Assembly (NCBI GenBank): GCA_037444405.1 | Contig: JBBIML010000017.1 | Location: 1 to 64,000, forward strand | DNA length: 64,000 nt | DNA from: Armatimonadota bacterium | Lineage (GTDB): Bacteria > Armatimonadota > Fimbriimonadia > Fimbriimonadales > GBS-DC | Direction of reading: 5' to 3' | In this document: piece by piece, positions 2,694 to 12,780 of the stretch | Layout of the letters: each line of letters begins with the position of its first letter | Numbering within the stretch: the first letter of the stretch is position 1 | Position numbers and translations under genes: made by a program | The notes under the pieces: model-generated | The model's database searches: none | Told to the model about the DNA's origin: nothing | Seen by the model: only the letters and a program-made list of their open reading frames with translations

Positions 2694-2769
2694 CTAACTG
2701 AGGCAGAATCTCGCCAGCGATGGCGAGCGTGTGGGTGTGAGGTTCAAGTGGACACAACAGGAGGACATG

Positions 2770-5751
2770 ATGAGATTCGCGATACTGGCTCTGGTGTTGA
2801 CGGCGTGTTCACTGATGGCGCAGGGGCAGACGGGCGCCCATCCAGAGGTGGAGACGCTGATTCGGCAAGCGATGGACGCTCGCCAGCAGGAACGCTGGCA
2901 GGATGCGCAACGGCTCTACCAGCAAGCCATCGAGCGGGCGCGTGCGCTGAATGACCGTGTGGGCGAGGCGAGCGCGTGGCACAATCTCGGTGTGGCGCAA
3001 CTGGCGATTAAACGCCCCGCGGATGCGCTCAAAAGCCTGCAGACGGCGCTCGCCCTCTGGCGCGAGCTGGGCAACCGCGTCAGCGAGGCGAACACCCTGC
3101 ACAACCTGGGCACCGCCTATGCCGATCTCGGCAAGGCGCGTGAGGCGCTCCAGATGTATCAGCAGGCGCTCGAACTCCGCCAGCAGCTGGGTCATCAGCA
3201 GGGCATCGCCGCCACCTTGCAGGGCATCGGCTCCGTCTACTACGCCATGCGCGACCTGCACAACGCCCAGCGCTATTTCGAACAAGCCCTCACTCGCTAT
3301 CGGCAACTGGGCAGCAAGGTGGGTGAGGCGGAAACCCTGCGCTACATCGGCAACCTGCTCGCTGTCGGCGGGCAATGGCAGAAGGCGTTAGCGGCTTACG
3401 AGCAGGCAGTCGCCCTCTATCGCGAAGCGAACGATATGGAAGGCGAGGCGACCACCTTAGCAGGTGTGGGCGCGCTGTTTCTGGATATGGGTCAGCCCGA
3501 ACTCGCGCTCGGCTACTACCAGCAGACGCTGGCACTGCGCCAGAAGGGTCGCGACCGCCGCGCCGTCATCAACGCGCATCTCGGCATCGGACACATCTAC
3601 GCCGCGCTCAATCGGCACGACGACGCCAAGAGGGAGTACGAGCAGGCGCTCGCCCTCAGCCGCAAACTCGGCGATCAGCGGGCAGAAGCCGCCGCGCTGA
3701 CCGCGCTCGGCACCATCGAAGCGCGCCTGCGACCAGACAAACCGAGCGCGTCCGAATCGCTCTTCCGGCAGGCGATTCTGCTCGCGCAGGCGACAGGCGA
3801 TAAGCTTGCGCAGGCGAACGCGCTGGTTCAGCAGGGCGCGCTCAGCGCCCGCACGAACCGCCCCCATGAAGCCATGCGCGGCTTCGAAAACGCGCTCGTG
3901 CTCTATCGCGAGCTGGGCGACCGCCGCGGCGAAATGGTCGCGCTCGCCAATCTGGGCGCCATCCACGCCAGCAGCGGCGAGAAAACGAAAGCCGTCGAGT
4001 ATTACCAGCAGGCGATCGAGGTCGCCGAATCGCTGCGCGAATCGCTGAGCGCGCTCACCGAAGGCAAGCTGGCGTTTCAGGAGAACCGCCACGCGCTCTA
4101 CGCCCGCTATATCAGCCTGCTGCTCAATCTGAACCGCATCGAGGACGCCTTCGCCCTCGCGCAGAAAGCCAAAGCGCGCACGCTGACCGATTTAATGGGC
4201 ATTGACCGCTCCGCCCTGCGCCGGGTGCTGACACCCGAAGAGCGCGAGCAGGAGCAGGCACTGCGCTATCAGCTCGATCGCGCCACGCAGAACCTGCTGG
4301 CCGCCCGCGCGAACCCCGACACTGACCCGCAACTGCTCGCCGAACTGCGTGAGGCTGTCCAGCAGGCGGAGCGCGAGTGGCAGGCGTTTATGGACAGCGT
4401 GTACGCCCGCCATCCGAACCTGATGCGACAGCAGGGTGTGCGCACCGTCACGCTGGAACAGATCGCGCAGAGCCTGCCCGCCGATACCGCACTGATTGAA
4501 TACCTGCTGTTGCAGCCGTCGGCGCAGGCGGGCAACGACTACCTGCTCATCTTCTGCCTGACCGCCGAGCGGGGCAAGCCGAAGCTGAGCGCACGGGTCA
4601 TCCCGCTCAGCGAGCCACCCTTAGCCGAGCGCACTGAATCGTTCGTGCTGACCTGCGCCGTGCCCAACGCCGAGTACCGAGCGCGGGCGATCGAGATGTA
4701 TAACCTGCTGATTGCCCCTATCGCATCGAAGCTGGCGGGCGTCAAACGGCTGGTTATCTGTCCCGACAGCACGCTGTGGGATGTGCCGTTCCAGGCGTTG
4801 CTGGACGGCAAGCAGTTTCTAATCGAGCGTTACGAGCTGAGCTATGCGCCCAGCGCGACGGTGGCGATGCTGTTGCGCGAGCTGCGCACCGCGCCCAATC
4901 GCCCGCGCCCGACGCATGAGCTGCTGCTGGTGGCGAACCCGCAGTTTGGCATGCTGACGCTGGCGTCGGCGAACGACGAGCGCCCGCTGACCACCGGCTC
5001 GCGCCCGCTGACAGCAGGGGCACGCCCATTAACCAGCGGCGCCCGACCGCTCACTTCAGGCGCACGCCCGCTGACCAGTGGGGCACGCCCCATCACCTCC
5101 GGTGCGCGTCCCATCACCACTGGCGCGCGCCCGCTGACCTCTGGCGCCCGCGACATCACCGGCGAATGGCTGGCGGAAGCAGGCATCCGAGTCACGCCGC
5201 TGCCCGGCACCGAGCGCGAGGCGGAAGCCATCGCCAGGCTGTTCCCCGACGCCCGACTGCTGACCCGAGAGCAGGCGCAGGAATCGACGCTCAAAAGCCA
5301 GCTTCCGCAATATCGCTATGTGCATCTGGCGACGCACGGCTACTTCAGCAATGTGGCGCCCCTGCAGAGCGGTGTGGTGCTGGCGGAGCCGCCGCCCGAC
5401 GCGAACGAGGATGGCATCCTGACCGCCCGCGAGCTGATGGAACTGCCTTTGAGCGCGGAGATGGTGGTGCTGTCCGCCTGTGAGAGCGCGCGCGGGATTG
5501 CCCGCCCCGGCGAGGGCACAATCGGCATGGTGTGGGCGCTGACCGTCTGCGGCGTGCCCGTGCAGATACTCAGCCAGTGGAAGGTCAGCGACGAAAGCAC
5601 CGCCATGCTGATGAGCGGCTACTATCAGCAGTTGCGCGAGGGCAGGTCGCCCGCCGCTGCCCTGCGCGACGCCGCGCTCGCCGTCAAACGCGACCCGCGC
5701 TTCAGCCATCCCTATTACTGGTCGCCCTTCATCTGCGTCAGCAGCTGGTGA
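2770..5751 (+). CDS. Secreted TPR-repeat CHAT-domain (caspase/HetF-like) protease
   Basis: Signal peptide MRFAILALVLTAC; many TPRs; HLATHG (His) and LSACES (Cys) motifs; PLPGTEREA; HPYYWSPF C-terminus; RBS GGAGG at 2760. Confidence 0.92.
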   Translation: MRFAILALVLTACSLMAQGQTGAHPEVETLIRQAMDARQQERWQDAQRLYQQAIERARALNDRVGEASAWHNLGVAQLAIKRPADALKSLQTALALWRELGNRVSEANTLHNLGTAYADLGKAREALQMYQQALELRQQLGHQQGIAATLQGIGSVYYAMRDLHNAQRYFEQALTRYRQLGSKVGEAETLRYIGNLLAVGGQWQKALAAYEQAVALYREANDMEGEATTLAGVGALFLDMGQPELALGYYQQTLALRQKGRDRRAVINAHLGIGHIYAALNRHDDAKREYEQALALSRKLGDQRAEAAALTALGTIEARLRPDKPSASESLFRQAILLAQATGDKLAQANALVQQGALSARTNRPHEAMRGFENALVLYRELGDRRGEMVALANLGAIHASSGEKTKAVEYYQQAIEVAESLRESLSALTEGKLAFQENRHALYARYISLLLNLNRIEDAFALAQKAKARTLTDLMGIDRSALRRVLTPEEREQEQALRYQLDRATQNLLAARANPDTDPQLLAELREAVQQAEREWQAFMDSVYARHPNLMRQQGVRTVTLEQIAQSLPADTALIEYLLLQPSAQAGNDYLLIFCLTAERGKPKLSARVIPLSEPPLAERTESFVLTCAVPNAEYRARAIEMYNLLIAPIASKLAGVKRLVICPDSTLWDVPFQALLDGKQFLIERYELSYAPSATVAMLLRELRTAPNRPRPTHELLLVANPQFGMLTLASANDERPLTTGSRPLTAGARPLTSGARPLTSGARPLTSGARPITSGARPITTGARPLTSGARDITGEWLAEAGIRVTPLPGTEREAEAIARLFPDARLLTREQAQESTLKSQLPQYRYVHLATHGYFSNVAPLQSGVVLAEPPPDANEDGILTARELMELPLSAEMVVLSACESARGIARPGEGTIGMVWALTVCGVPVQILSQWKVSDESTAMLMSGYYQQLREGRSPAAALRDAALAVKRDPRFSHPYYWSPFICVSSW
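4981..5163 (+). repeat. In-frame 21-bp/7-aa tandem repeat, 8 full units plus a partial ninth
   Basis: RPLTTGS RPLTAGA RPLTSGA RPLTSGA RPLTSGA RPITSGA RPITTGA RPLTSGA RDITG. Confidence 0.97.
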
Positions 5752-7853: not shown

Positions 7854-8177
7854 ATGAGTTCGCTGATCATCGAACCGAATGTTTACTACACGGTGGACGA
7901 AGCGGCGGCGCGGCTTCGCGTTTCGCCGCGCACAATCCTGCGCCTGCTCCGCACCCGCGTGATTAAGGGGATTAAGATTGGCAGGCAGTGGCGCATCCTG
8001 GGGGCGTCGCTGCTGGAGTTGCCACACGCTCAATCGGCTCCGGCACCACCCCAGCGCTCCCTGCTTGAAGTGCTTGAGGCAATTCATGCACGGCAGCGCG
8101 CACGAGGGCATGTTCCGCCAGCACCAGAAGAGGTAACAACTTATCTGCAAGCTGAGCGAGATGGCTGGGGAGAATAG
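7854..8177 (+). CDS. Excisionase-like HTH protein, putative antitoxin
   Basis: YTVDEAAARLRVSPRTI...GIKIGRQWRI; directly upstream of a PIN gene; RBS AGGAGG. Confidence 0.8.
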   Translation: MSSLIIEPNVYYTVDEAAARLRVSPRTILRLLRTRVIKGIKIGRQWRILGASLLELPHAQSAPAPPQRSLLEVLEAIHARQRARGHVPPAPEEVTTYLQAERDGWGE

Positions 8178-8179
8178 CG

Positions 8180-8569
8180 ATGCGGTTTTATCTGGATGCA
8201 GCTCCCGTTATCTATCTTGTTGAACAGGTTAGCCCCTACTATTTGCCCCTGAGTCGGCGTTTAGCACAGTCCGGAGGTGTGCTGGTAGTGAGCGAGTTAA
8301 CCCGCCTGGAGTGCCGAGTTAAACCGTTGAAGTTTAATGATATTGATTTACTACGAGATTATGATGAATTTTTCAACTATTCGGTCGTGGAGGTTGTTCC
8401 TTTATCGCGAGCAGTGATGGAGCTGGCGACCGAAATCAGAGCGAGATACGGCTTCAGAACCCCTGATTCGATCCATCTGGCTGCTGCCAGACATGCTCTC
8501 TGCGAGGTTTTCCTGACTAATGACCACCAACTGGTGCGCTACGCCGATATTCGAGTCGAAATCGTTTAA
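8180..8569 (+). CDS. vapC: PIN-domain VapC-family toxin
   Basis: YLDAAPVIY, ELTRLE, TPDSIHLAAA and FLTND acidic motifs. Confidence 0.88.
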   Translation: MRFYLDAAPVIYLVEQVSPYYLPLSRRLAQSGGVLVVSELTRLECRVKPLKFNDIDLLRDYDEFFNYSVVEVVPLSRAVMELATEIRARYGFRTPDSIHLAAARHALCEVFLTNDHQLVRYADIRVEIV

Positions 8570-8661: not shown

Positions 8662-9420
8662 ATGCGATTAAGGAAGGGGTTCACCCTTATTGAGCTGCTG
8701 GTGGTGATAGCGATTATCGCCATTCTGGCGGCGATTTTGTTTCCCGTGTTCGCACAGGCGCGGGAGAAGGCGCGTCAGACCGCATGTTTGTCCAACGCGC
8801 GTCAGCTGGCGATGGCAGTGCAGACCTATCTGCAGGATCACGACGAGGCGTTTCCGCCGTCCACCAACTACGATGTGCCCACCAATGTGCCGGAGCGCAT
8901 CTGGACGCGCATCATTCAGCCCTATGTGAAGGATACGAACATCTTTGTGTGTCCAAGCGCGTCGAATTCGGGCTTCCCGTCAGATTGGGCGTCGCGCGGG
9001 ATTGGCTCCATCGGCTACACGACCATAACCGCCTACGACCCGCTTCAGATAGAGGGCTTCGCCACGCCCGCCACTTTGCCGCAGATGGAGGAGCCAGCCC
9101 GCACGCCGCTGTTCGGCGACACCGCCAGCGGACCGACCGCCGACAAGTATCGCGGCTATGTGTTTGACCCGTATAACGGCGATCCGAACCCGCGCGATCC
9201 GCGGCTGGGCACGCCGCTGGTGGCGGATCGCGACCTGGTGCGCGAGCTGAACCATCTGCCGCCGGCTCGCCTGAAGCCGCTCTATGCGCGCCACTTCGCG
9301 ACGGGCACTAATCGCGGGCTAACGACTCTCATCTTCGGTGACGGGCACGCCAAACCTTACTCGGCAGCGTCCATCCTGGCTCAGGACCAGGGCGCGAACC
9401 TCATCTGGCGCTTTCGGTAA
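8662..9420 (+). CDS. Prepilin-type N-terminal methylation / DUF1559-like protein
   Basis: [34 protein letters not shown]-terminal RH...FGDGHAK. Confidence 0.9.
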
Positions 9421-10170: not shown

Positions 10171-12780
10171 TCAGGCACAGCCCTCCCCAAACGCGAACAG
10201 CACAATCAGCAGGTCGGCGTCGTCCACAACGCCATCGCCGTTCACATCTTCGGGCAGCCCGCTGCCCGTTTGACCGAAGGCGAACAGCACGGCCAGCAGG
10301 TCGGCATCGTCCACGCAGCCGTCGCGGTCAACATCGCCTGCAGGCGTGAGCGGCAGCCGGATGCGCCACATGCCGCGCCCATAGGTCGCTGCCATCAGGT
10401 AGCCCGTGCCCGGCACCACCTTCAGCGTGTTGACCTGCACATTGGGCAGCCCCAGCGGCGCGGTGCCGTTGTGCCATGTCGCGCCGCCGTCCAGCGTGTA
10501 GAACATGCCGATGTCCGTGCCCACATAGAGGATTCTGTCGGGCGCGGAGGGATCGATCGCCAGCGTATTGGCATGGATATCGGGCAACGCCGCGCTACCC
10601 GACCCGCTGATGTTCACCCACTGCACGGGGTTCGCCAGCGTGTTGTCGCAACGCCATACATGGGGCGCGCCCGTGCCGCCCAGCGCCACATAGATTTTGT
10701 AAGGGTTATTCGGATGCACCGCAATCGCCGTGATGGCGCGGTTGGGCAGGGACGGGTTGCCCGCGTTGATCTGTCGCCAGTTGCTGCCGCCGTTCGTGGT
10801 CATCCACAGCTCGCCCCGATTGGGATTGGAACCCGTGTAGATGACATTCGCGTTGCTGGGCGCGCCCGCGATGGAGATGACCACGCCGTTCGCCGAGAGC
10901 TGCTGATTGCCCAGTCGCGCCGTCCATGTGCGCGTGGTCTCGTCCCAGCGCCAGAGGTAGTTCGTGCCCGCCAGCAGATAGCTGGGCTGGGCAGGATGGA
11001 TGGCAATTGGCGCGATAAAAGCGACGCGGTCGCTTCCAATATCGGGGCTGATGTTGCTGGAGCTGCTCCAGTTGCTGGTGGTGCGCAAAACGCCCAGATT
11101 TTGATAGGTAGCGTACTGGATGTTCGGATTGACGGGGTTATAGGCGCAGTAGCCGCCGTCGCCGCCGCCCACATTGCGCCAGCTGTTGAGGTTGCCGTTC
11201 GCGCTCGGCGTGGAGTTGTCCTGTGCGCCGCCCAGCATCCGATTCGGGTCGGTCGGATGGAAGTCGGCGGCATAGAACTGGGTGATGCCCAGATTCGCGT
11301 TCAGGCTGGTATAGGAGACCGTGCCGGTGCTGGGGTTATAAACCAGCCGGTAGACGCCGCCGTCGTTGCCCGCCAGTGCTTCGTTCGGGTTGCGCGGGTT
11401 AATCGCGAAGGCGTGCTGGTCCACATGGATCAGCGCGCTTTCGGTGAAACCGTATGCGATGGAGCGCCATGTGCCCGTGCCGGTGCGCTGAACCAGATCC
11501 ACCAGTCCCAGATAGATCACATCGTTGCCGGTGTTATCCCGCGACACATGCAGGTGCGCGTCGTACCACGACTGGTAGAAACCACCATCTTCGGTCGGGT
11601 TGAGGGCGGTCCAGGAGTTGCCGGCGTTATCGCTGCGCCATACCTGCGAGGCGTTGCCCGACATCAGATAGACGCGATTGGGATTGGTGGGCGAGGCAGC
11701 GATGCGAAGCGCACGCTGGTTGCCCGGGAAGGGTGGGGTCAGCACTGTCCAGGTGGCGCCGCGGTCGCTGGAGCGCAGAACCCGCCCCGGATTGCCGTGC
11801 CCCACCGCATAGTAGTAGCGGATGCCGGTGCTGGGATCGCGTGCCCCCATCGCCATATCGCTCCAGATTGCGCTCACAGGGTTCACCTGCGTCCATGTCG
11901 CGCCACCATCGGTGGAACGCCAGATTTCGCCCAGCACATTCTGATAGGGACCCCAGCCTGTGCAGGCGACGATAATATCCGGGTTTTCGGGGTCAATCAG
12001 GATATCGGAGACGCACTTGTAGCCGAACTGGGCGGCGCCGATGCTCTGCCAGGTCTGCCCGCCATCGGTCGACTTCATAATGCCGATGGAGAAAGGTCGC
12101 ATCCAGCCCTGGAAATCGCCCGTGCCCACATAGATGATGTCGGGGTTCGTCGGGTGGATGGCGATGCAGGCGACCTGCAGGAACTGCCAGCTGTCGCCGA
12201 GCGGTTGCCAGGTGGCACCGAAGTCGGTGCTGCGCCACAGCCCGCCCTGCGGCGCGCCCATGTAATAGACGCCCTCCTGAGTCGGGTGATACGCCAGCGC
12301 GTTCACCCGCCCTGTGACGGGCGGGAGACCGAAATAGGTGCGGTACGGCACGCCCAGATTGCGCGGTCCGACAAACTCCCAGCGAGGTCCAGAGGCGGGG
12401 GCAAAGTCGGTCATCGCGTCGCGATGCTCGGCGGCGCGAATGTACGCCATCCAGTCCACCGAAGCATAGGGGTAGGCGCGCAGCTCCAGATAGAAGAGCA
12501 ACGCCTCCAGATATTCGGTGGCTTCTTCGAGCTTGTGGCGCTGCGCGGCGGTTAACTTCACACCGCGCTTCTCCAGCGTTCGCAGGTGCTGTTTCGCCTG
12601 CGCCTTCTCTTTTTGCACCCAGCGTTTCAGCCCGCGAATCGAGTAAAGCGGCGGCTGCGCTTCGATTCGTCGGTGCAAAACGCACTTTGACTTGGCTGTC
12701 GCGCTGGCTTGCGGTAGCGCAGGCATCAGCGCCTGAATCAGCAACCATGCAATCAACCCGAAACGGATTGCATATCTCAT
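10171..12780 (-). CDS. Secreted BNR/Asp-box beta-propeller protein with C-terminal dockerin-like repeat
   Basis: Repeated S-x-D-x-G-x-T-W boxes; ATYGRGMW; twin GDVDRDGCVDDADLL / DVNGDGVVDDADLL repeats. Confidence 0.85.
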   Translation of the reverse strand: MRYAIRFGLIAWLLIQALMPALPQASATAKSKCVLHRRIEAQPPLYSIRGLKRWVQKEKAQAKQHLRTLEKRGVKLTAAQRHKLEEATEYLEALLFYLELRAYPYASVDWMAYIRAAEHRDAMTDFAPASGPRWEFVGPRNLGVPYRTYFGLPPVTGRVNALAYHPTQEGVYYMGAPQGGLWRSTDFGATWQPLGDSWQFLQVACIAIHPTNPDIIYVGTGDFQGWMRPFSIGIMKSTDGGQTWQSIGAAQFGYKCVSDILIDPENPDIIVACTGWGPYQNVLGEIWRSTDGGATWTQVNPVSAIWSDMAMGARDPSTGIRYYYAVGHGNPGRVLRSSDRGATWTVLTPPFPGNQRALRIAASPTNPNRVYLMSGNASQVWRSDNAGNSWTALNPTEDGGFYQSWYDAHLHVSRDNTGNDVIYLGLVDLVQRTGTGTWRSIAYGFTESALIHVDQHAFAINPRNPNEALAGNDGGVYRLVYNPSTGTVSYTSLNANLGITQFYAADFHPTDPNRMLGGAQDNSTPSANGNLNSWRNVGGGDGGYCAYNPVNPNIQYATYQNLGVLRTTSNWSSSSNISPDIGSDRVAFIAPIAIHPAQPSYLLAGTNYLWRWDETTRTWTARLGNQQLSANGVVISIAGAPSNANVIYTGSNPNRGELWMTTNGGSNWRQINAGNPSLPNRAITAIAVHPNNPYKIYVALGGTGAPHVWRCDNTLANPVQWVNISGSGSAALPDIHANTLAIDPSAPDRILYVGTDIGMFYTLDGGATWHNGTAPLGLPNVQVNTLKVVPGTGYLMAATYGRGMWRIRLPLTPAGDVDRDGCVDDADLLAVLFAFGQTGSGLPEDVNGDGVVDDADLLIVLFAFGEGCA

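Follow-up and report, generated by a model that had tools for sequence, protein, structure and literature searches.

The stretch of DNA analyzed here (the window) comprises 64,000 nucleotides of an Armatimonadota bacterium (NCBI GenBank assembly GCA_037444405.1, contig JBBIML010000017.1, positions 1 to 64,000 of the forward strand), taken from a genome of 2.68 Mb with a GC content of 62.5% and a completeness of 98.9%. Near its start lies a gene for a protein with a TPR region followed by a CHAT domain, and the catalytic half of this domain carries a tandem array of heptapeptide units, which is the subject of this report. Residue numbers refer to the 993-residue form starting at the ATG at 2770. 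An alternative ATG is present at 2767, with AGGAGG directly 5' of the ATG pair (2767/2770), and the longest open reading frame (ORF) covers 2731-5751 (+) from a GTG start at 2731. The CHAT domain was matched by the Pfam family PF12770 with an E-value of 3.6e-77 and 260.1 bits against a cut-off of 24, over profile positions 5-287 of 289. Many Pfam TPR families were also matched, with TPR_12 at E 2.3e-65. The CHAT match takes up 350 protein residues for 283 profile positions and so contains an insert of ∼67 residues.

The array comprises RPLTTGS, RPLTAGA, RPLTSGA, RPLTSGA, RPLTSGA, RPITSGA, RPITTGA, RPLTSGA and RDITGEW, in this order, and is flanked by LLLVANPQFGMLTLASANDE before and LAEAGIRVTPLPGTEREA after. 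In each of the eight RP units, position 4 is T and position 5 is T, S or A. Tandem Repeats Finder reported the interval 4980-5151 with a period of 21, 8.2 copies and 67% matches. The DNA of the eight RP units was compared pairwise and all 28 pairs differed, by 4 to 9 of 21 bases (mean 6.3). Codon differences among the units were 96 synonymous versus 36 non-synonymous, and 121 of 176 base differences were at third codon positions. An initial annotation, made from the window sequence alone, had described eight heptads that all differ at the DNA level, mostly synonymously, and had held that they were not products of recent slippage; both statements were confirmed, no two units being identical in DNA. 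It had placed the element at 4981..5163, of which the start was correct and the end was not, as 5163 falls inside the ninth unit. The positions of all features are collected in Table 1.

Table 1. Features of the TPR-CHAT gene and of the heptad array, with positions in the window
Feature	Position	Strand	Basis
TPR-CHAT gene, 993 aa, caspase-like cysteine peptidase, putatively exported	2770..5751	+	ORF list; database form begins MRF
Putative signal peptide, N-terminus MRFAILALVLTACSLMAQGQ	2770..2829	+	Hydrophobic; crude hydropathy window and by eye
TPR superhelix, ∼ten helix pairs	2842..4209	+	Pfam TPR families; AlphaFold2 helices 25-480, pLDDT >90; LGN/Pins fold matches
Strand HELLLVANP, first of the catalytic half; the loop begins after it	4915..4941	+	AlphaFold2 strand 716-724
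Loop predicted to be disordered, residues 732-806	4963..5187	+	AlphaFold2 pLDDT ∼30
Eight 21-bp units, RP[L/I]T[T/S/A]G[S/A]	4981..5148	+	Sequence, translation, Tandem Repeats Finder
Ninth unit RDITGEW, register kept, no proline, runs back into the fold	5149..5169	+	Translation
LPGTEREAEAIARLF, first helix of the catalytic half	5200..5244	+	AlphaFold2 helix 812-824
HLATHG, catalytic His codon 5335-5337	5323..5340	+	H856 invariant in 108-sequence alignment
LSACES, catalytic Cys codon 5479-5481	5470..5487	+	C904 invariant in 108-sequence alignment

Runs of at least three RP heptads were searched for in all frames of the genome, and the array was the only non-chance run. A looser RP-x5 pattern gave 15 other matches, all of them unrelated triples. 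The proposal that other proteins of the proteome might carry the motif as substrates gained nothing from a motif count, in which RP[LI]T[STA]G was found 0 times outside the gene versus 0.8 expected; among related motifs G[AS]RP[LI]T was found outside the gene once versus 0.2 expected and RP[LI]T 45 times versus 39.6 expected.

Arrays of RP[L/I]Txxx units, mostly RPLT-x-G-x, were present in 13 of 13 homologues at 54-80% identity. The number of RP units in these proteins ranged from 3 to 15 and was unrelated to the length of the TPR region, and every array ended in RD or RN. The ratio of non-synonymous to synonymous substitution rates (dN/dS) was calculated by the Nei-Gojobori method for five orthologue pairs. 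By pair, the ratio was 0.03, 0.10, 0.00, 0.11 and 0.11 for the array (range 0-0.11), 0.08, 0.16, 0.06, 0.26 and 0.16 for the CHAT core (range 0.06-0.26) and 0.37, 0.19, 0.12, 0.38 and 0.27 for the rest of the protein (range 0.12-0.38), so that the array was below both the core and the remainder in all five pairs; where copy numbers differ, the units compared may not be true counterparts, with dS inflated and the ratio possibly lowered. One pair had 38 synonymous and 0 non-synonymous differences over 63 array codons. The view that the array is kept at the protein level is upheld by both comparisons with orthologues, that of array presence and that of dN/dS.

A same-genus relative (L005 / L034), with a gene 96-98% identical to this one, has nine RP units versus eight. 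The first two codons of its extra unit are those of unit 4 of the window and the remainder is that of unit 3, which gives it the look of a hybrid of its neighbours, and its unit 8 looks converted to its unit 7. These patterns point to unequal exchange and conversion inside the array of the relative, and whole-unit change in the array is still ongoing at this distance. Judged from the sequences compared, the array is old and turns over by whole units, with selection on the peptide sequence of every unit.

The wider family was surveyed by a CHAT-domain search of 401 Armatimonadota genomes, which gave matches at E ≤ 1e-20 in 119 of them. Thirty loci were read, and the majority of those with a whole-query identity of 44-50% carry a different heptad at the same loop. 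The unit types found in this way included RPIDTPS, RPLSDPS, RPFDAPS, RPITVPD, RPIITNL, RPIPDAS, RPISIPD, RPIEPPS and RPIGSPD/RVIGSPD; the array of Armatimonas rosea has eight units of the RPIDTPS type. A loose regular expression applied to 152 proteins found 47 with at least three heptads, corresponding to 45 distinct arrays, or 43 after the false matches P0056 and P0087 were dropped. When 1.84 billion cluster representatives were searched exhaustively with HMMER, 109,924 matches were obtained at E ≤ 0.001. Among the best 150 of these matches were 147 new proteins, of which 57 had at least three heptads, 26 had two and 64 had none or one, the last group including proteins in which the His-motif anchor failed. 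Further unit types from this set were RPFDRPS, RPFELPS, RPLPAPD and RPIVAPS, together with the proline-less RAITADS, RAISAES, RAIGAEA and RALIATS. Copy number across the family is 2-16. The few named array-bearing matches are all from Armatimonadota (Fimbriimonadales, Armatimonas, Abditibacteriaceae, Bacterium HR15 and two Armatimonadota metagenome-assembled genomes).

Periodicity was also measured by a test that assumed no residue. The 201 extracted loops included 84 with a length of at least 40 residues, and the self-identity of these 84 was highest at lag 7 in 66 cases and at lag 14 in 4 cases. In all 55 distinct period-7 cores one column was at least 85% Arg. The column after it was P in 50 cores and A in 5, and the second column after it was L/I/F/V in all 55, leaving Arg as the only invariant polar residue of the unit. 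Positions 4-7 are lineage-specific, position 6 being G or P and position 2 being P in the arrays compared, and most unit types outside this genus contain one Arg and one acidic residue. The register runs on into an extra Arg in 43 of 43 distinct arrays, followed by D in 21, A in 9 and P in 1.

A FastTree tree was built from the catalytic half with the loop left out (152 rows, 199 columns). All 44 array-bearing rows fell within one 52-row clade (support 82, not starred), itself nested in a 55-row clade (support 93). Placed as a label on the tree, the array requires at least nine changes, of which four are forced by well-supported branches alone. The catalytic halves across the array clade go down to 45-50% identity with the one studied here. 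The eight array-less rows inside the clade comprise three shrunken forms (L022 and L025 with two units, P0022 with one), two in which the array was lost and an R-D-hydrophobic segment before RGG..LPGT was kept (L023 and L028) and three with no repeat units at the loop (P0021, P0024 and L029), P0021 being without the whole region. On this phylogeny the array is assigned a single old origin within one Armatimonadota TPR-CHAT clade. P0021 is a 657-residue relative with a catalytic half 67-68% identical, in which the TPR/helical region is joined directly to the post-loop helix; it is without the first half of the CHAT domain as well as the array, and may be a natural deletion or an assembly artefact. 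Two further CHAT genes in the genome of the window are both without an array and both distant in the tree.

Some larger Armatimonadota genomes have two to four array-bearing TPR-CHAT genes in tandem (L056 at G229:C89:38500-58499, L058 at G005:C101, L059 at G026:C1 and L060 at G261:C3). The arrays of such paralogues are uniform inside and slightly different between neighbours; for two tandem paralogues of one genome, RPFDRPS makes up 7 of 8 units in one and RPFDAPS/RPFDAPA all 6 units in the other. Codon differences within arrays were summed over 30 arrays with DNA available, giving 2425 synonymous and 1332 non-synonymous differences once four off-frame artefacts of the regular expression had been dropped and their counts subtracted. 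In the most extreme arrays the synonymous and non-synonymous counts were 24/0, 40/0, 50/4 and 129/7, and a DNA-identical pair of units, a single one, was found in only 4 of the 30.

A census by DNA pattern (four CGN-CCN-NTN units at 21-bp spacing) matched 24 of the 401 genomes, ∼15 of them at CHAT loci that the domain search had also found, a count that is neither clean nor complete since the pattern misses AGR codons and RA-type units. The other nine genomes (G072, G033, G287, G226, G270, G010, G300, G397 and G336) have mostly exact DNA tandem repeats, the contig matched in G336 not being among the CHAT matches listed. A search for arrays in short proteins gave 3 matches among 8000 scored candidates, namely one CHAT fragment and two unrelated proteins. 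P0124 is an unrelated, secreted-looking protein of 424 residues in which AKPITTN/ARPITSG heptads at residues ∼225-275 link two domains; here a very similar repeat serves independently as a spacer. P0032, a 'Protein dachsous' model of the barnacle Amphibalanus amphitrite, contains 24 near-perfect RPLTVGA/RPLTAGA heptads at residues 54-218, before cadherin domains. These probably stem from translation of a 21-bp minisatellite or from an erroneous gene model, and their likeness to the array looks coincidental.

The structure of the protein was predicted with AlphaFold2 utilizing a 108-sequence alignment. The model had a mean predicted local distance difference test (pLDDT) value of 86.3 and a predicted template modelling score (pTM) of 0.83, and showed ∼ten pairs of TPR helices along with a helical linker and the CHAT domain. 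Its sole long low-confidence stretch was residues 732-806. Residues L811, P812 and E817, next to and in the first helix after the loop, are at least 90% conserved. The elements of the catalytic half follow in the order strand 716-724, loop, helix 812-824, strand 829-833, helix 838-847 and strand 848-854, leading to His856, with a later strand at 898-901 leading to Cys904. The caspase fold has this same order, strand-helix-strand-helix-strand(His)...strand(Cys). The first loop of the catalytic half and the catalytic His and Cys presumably share one edge of the sheet, and the order of elements accordingly puts the insert in the first loop at the active-site edge; this closeness is deduced from the topology of the predicted fold and not from coordinates. 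In an orthologue with three units, modelled with its own alignment, the equivalent loop had pLDDT <50. A complex prediction of residues 30-993 with residues 766-801 (five units) as partner gave a score of 0.00 and a mark of 0.32; run without controls, it is evidence neither way.

The His and Cys motifs, HLATHG and LSACES, are intact as the initial annotation had reported, both residues being invariant in the 108 sequences, and the invariant His is the second of HLATHG. By sequence and predicted fold the protein clearly belongs to the CHAT (caspase/separase-type) peptidase family. The signal peptide of the same annotation stands in part: the hydrophobic start is kept in orthologues, its assignment having been made only by visual inspection and with a crude hydropathy window. 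Where the N-terminus of an orthologue is complete, it has a similar hydrophobic start with an AQAQ/GQ-type end, before (T/I/V)RAHP. The array-bearing TPR-CHAT protein thus looks like an exported one with a Sec signal-peptide-like start. A lipoprotein reading of LTAC was rejected, as its Cys is not conserved among orthologues. A signal-peptide-like start was seen by the crude hydropathy test in 45 of 58 relatives with an array and in 109 of 131 without one, and export as a trait linked to the array was rejected, array-less relatives being signal-peptide-like equally often.

The gene stands alone between a divergent GH99-like gene upstream and a convergent thiamine pyrophosphate (TPP)-enzyme gene downstream. 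The neighbours (a PEP-CTERM protein, the GH99-like protein and the TPP enzyme) are kept only in the 96%-identical relative. No conserved operon partners were found in the neighbourhoods compared, synteny being lost in relatives at 73% and 55% identity. The PEP-CTERM sorting-signal protein (145-807, +) adjoins the GH99-like glycoside hydrolase, which has 579 residues (860-2599, -). Further along the window, a PIN-domain protein (8180-8569, Pfam E 9e-12) lies directly 3' of a 107-residue ORF (7854-8177), the pair at 7854-8569 (+) being arranged like a VapBC-type toxin-antitoxin pair. A protein encoded at 8662-9420 (+) has a prepilin-type N-terminal methylation motif and then a DUF1559 domain. 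At 10171-12780 (-) is encoded an 869-residue BNR/sortilin-type beta-propeller protein with a signal-peptide-like start, the C-terminus of which has two DxDxDG-like repeats (DVDRDGCVDDADLL / DVNGDGVVDDADLL) resembling a dockerin or EF-hand pair.

The top Foldseek matches of the model were Csx29, DdvA and human separase, with E-values of 5e-14 to 1e-13, and the fold of the TPR part resembles the TPR domains of LGN/Pins. Csx29 of the type III-E CRISPR 'Craspase' (PDB 8eey_B, 8d9f_A and 7y84_C) was the best match (E 5e-14, template modelling (TM) scores 0.42/0.55, sequence identity only 10-12%) and likewise has a TPR superhelix and a CHAT caspase-like domain with a His/Cys dyad. Its substrate is described as being cut in a flexible loop (PMC10028731). 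Csx29 is cytoplasmic, Cas7-11-bound and RNA-activated, whereas the protein studied here is predicted to be exported, is genomically alone and carries a 63-residue heptad array after the first strand of the catalytic half.

DdvA (E 6e-14) is likewise a TPR-CHAT protein outside the cytoplasm with a canonical dyad. It is periplasmic, and its available description proposes, without demonstrating it, that it cuts a flexible linker of its own dimer (PMC11506125). DdvA has its own N-terminal anti-sigma domain and transmembrane helix, which are absent from the build of the protein described here, and its candidate self-substrate is the linker to the membrane, whereas the array lies inside the CHAT domain. 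DdvA is reported from Myxococcota and one Comamonas and not from Armatimonadota (PMC11506125).

Human separase (PDB 9hn5, 9hma and 7nj1; E 8e-14) likewise combines a helical-repeat region with a caspase-like domain. Three autocleavage motifs with Arg at P1 are described in a large disordered insert; in an inactive mutant the first occupies the catalytic pocket and the third is docked on the TPR-like domain, and loops of separase act, together with securin, as substrate mimics (PMC12609080, in the portion available). Separase is eukaryotic, cytoplasmic or nuclear, and far larger. Its three ExxR motifs are dissimilar, whereas arrays of the present type have 8-16 identical heptads. Strict specificity for Arg at P1, with small residues preferred nearby, is stated in the accessible text on the bacterial caspase-like protease of type IV Thoeris (bioRxiv 10.1101/2024.10.24.620036), which is not a CHAT protein.

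From these observations we tentatively favour, at less than even probability, the reading that the array is a tethered and multivalent element directed at the cleft of the enzyme itself, either resembling a substrate or serving for autocleavage. Each unit would present the same Arg-centred motif to this cleft, which would nearly always be occupied or shielded by units, and on activation the loop would be cut, most simply at Arg, so that the enzyme would be opened. We infer that Arg is the recognised residue and that binding or cleavage takes place in cis. The reading is favoured because the fold topology places the loop at the active-site edge, because dN/dS of the array is below that of the CHAT core and every unit is kept alike, because the R-[P/A]-[L/I/F/V] core is invariant and has a single old origin, and because separase, one of the closest solved structural relatives, provides a precedent, to which the self-cutting proposed for DdvA and the P1-Arg specificity of the type IV Thoeris protease may be added.

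Several points weigh against it. The loop was not seen in the cleft, AlphaFold2 leaving it unplaced both here and in the three-unit orthologue. A single copy is enough for a pseudo-substrate, and 8-16 equally constrained copies are unexplained by simple autoinhibition. Copy number varies from 3 to 15 among the homologues at 54-80% identity with no visible compensating change, and array length is therefore not critical. The separase motifs do not form tandem repeats, and their insert is a different one, located in the TPR-like rather than the protease domain. A match of the Arg motif to the cleavage specificity (P1) of this CHAT clade is putative. The site at which the CHAT enzyme Csx29 cleaves Csx30 is located between residues 427 and 429, without mention of an Arg there in the part of the source available (PMC10028731).

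The initial annotation had suggested that the Arg-Pro bonds resist cleavage and that the last Arg-Asp might be the real site. Both parts are weakened: 5 of 55 array types utilize Arg-Ala throughout, so that proline is dispensable, and the R-D segment is retained in two clade members without an array, where it may simply be an anchor leading back into the fold. Arg-Pro bonds are cleaved by the clan-CD enzyme clostripain.

The alternative that fares best, though we regard it as rather unlikely, is a multivalent binder or entropic brush. The loop would then be a flexible, protease-resistant tentacle whose R-P-hydrophobic motifs attach to a partner that is itself periodic (for instance a polymer of the cell envelope, a protein oligomer or the TPR groove of neighbours), or it would serve as a steric fence of the active site. 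Its predicted disorder is consistent with such a role, as are uniform units, which suit avidity, G or P at position 6 and P at position 2, which favour extended chains, and the finding that most unit types beyond this genus are soluble polyampholytes. The TPR part, moreover, resembles LGN/Pins, a binder of long extended peptides, and the unrelated P0124 utilizes similar repeats as an interdomain linker. A pure spacer, however, would not give dN/dS of 0-0.11 at every position, and the active-site edge is an odd site for an external binding arm. Copy number does not follow the length of the TPR region, and no partner is conserved in the neighbourhood.

Also unlikely, and somewhat more so, is a multi-copy peptide precursor, in which the array would be cargo and the enzyme or a sister molecule would cut at every Arg. 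As many identical heptapeptides of the form P-[L/I]-T-x-G-[A/S]-R as there are units would be released as an extracellular or periplasmic signal or effector, the CHAT halves staying associated. Known multi-copy precursors (polyubiquitin, yeast alpha-factor and multi-core ribosomally synthesized and post-translationally modified peptides) consist of identical peptides in tandem, encoded by DNA that has diverged synonymously, with a copy number that varies and a basic residue wherever two units meet. Identical peptides encoded by different codons in equally constrained units, as found here, are the signature of a multi-copy product. The units are uniform within a protein and different between lineages (RPFDRPS versus RPFDAPS in the paralogues), as lineage-specific signals would be; copy number is free, from 2 to 16; the extra Arg that closes the register in all 43 arrays would complete the last peptide; and the protein has the start of an exported one. 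Identical peptides from different codons, uniform arrays, free copy number and the closing Arg fit a released peptide at least as naturally as the cleft-directed element favoured above. Against release, an enzyme of 993 residues would be expensive for only eight peptides, the neighbourhood has no conserved gene for a receptor, a transporter or a modifying enzyme, most proteases do not ordinarily cleave Arg-Pro bonds, and the release itself is putative. The known precursors are, moreover, dedicated proteins processed by separate enzymes, whereas here the repeats lie inside the protease's own catalytic domain.

A further reading, which we consider doubtful, is that of a self-contained peptide dispenser. 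An exported sensor-protease, with the TPR region as sensor and the CHAT domain as blade, would store 2-16 lineage-specific heptapeptides in its active-site loop; activation would lead to a cut at each Arg, at once opening the enzyme and giving a burst of peptides as signal or effector. We know of no precursor of this kind.

A role of the array as a modification target is improbable. The Thr/Ser-rich, Pro-containing units would be glycosylated or otherwise modified to form a mucin-like shield over the active site, consistent with the T and T/S/A at positions 4 and 5 of every RP unit here, with S or T beside P in many other unit types and with the signal-peptide-like start. In RAIGAEA, RPLPAPD and similar units, however, hydroxyl residues at fixed positions are scarce or missing, invariance is confined to Arg and a hydrophobic residue and does not extend to Ser/Thr, and no glycosyltransferase is conserved beside the gene, the GH99-like neighbour being divergent and lost from the neighbourhood in relatives.

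Neutral low-complexity expansion, a functionless slippage product tolerated in a surface loop, could account for eight versus nine units between relatives at 96-98% identity and for the shrinkage or loss of the array in some clade members, but is highly improbable, being contradicted by the selection data (dN/dS below the catalytic core, barring artefacts from misaligned units), by the lack of DNA-identical units here, by retention across a clade in which identity to the catalytic half studied here is only 45-50% and by the invariance of R-[P/A]-hydrophobic in 55 of 55 arrays.

The CHAT family is a known one, and the heptad array in the loop appears to be new. No published description of the array was found in the literature on the CHAT domain together with Armatimonadetes, heptapeptides or signal peptide/periplasm, subscription journals and supplements lying outside the coverage of this search. 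Bacterial caspase-like proteases are executioners and switches in immunity, as in Craspase, type IV Thoeris and gasdermin systems. The array marks a site at which the regulation of exported TPR-CHAT enzymes is open to study. It forms a loop with predicted disorder that appears to be under stronger purifying selection than the catalytic core, and its units are a source of candidate peptide substrates or inhibitors. The array is also a clear case, found in nature, of repeats that are kept identical as peptides while their codons have diversified. Should peptides indeed be released from it, the array would represent a new way of encoding a signal.

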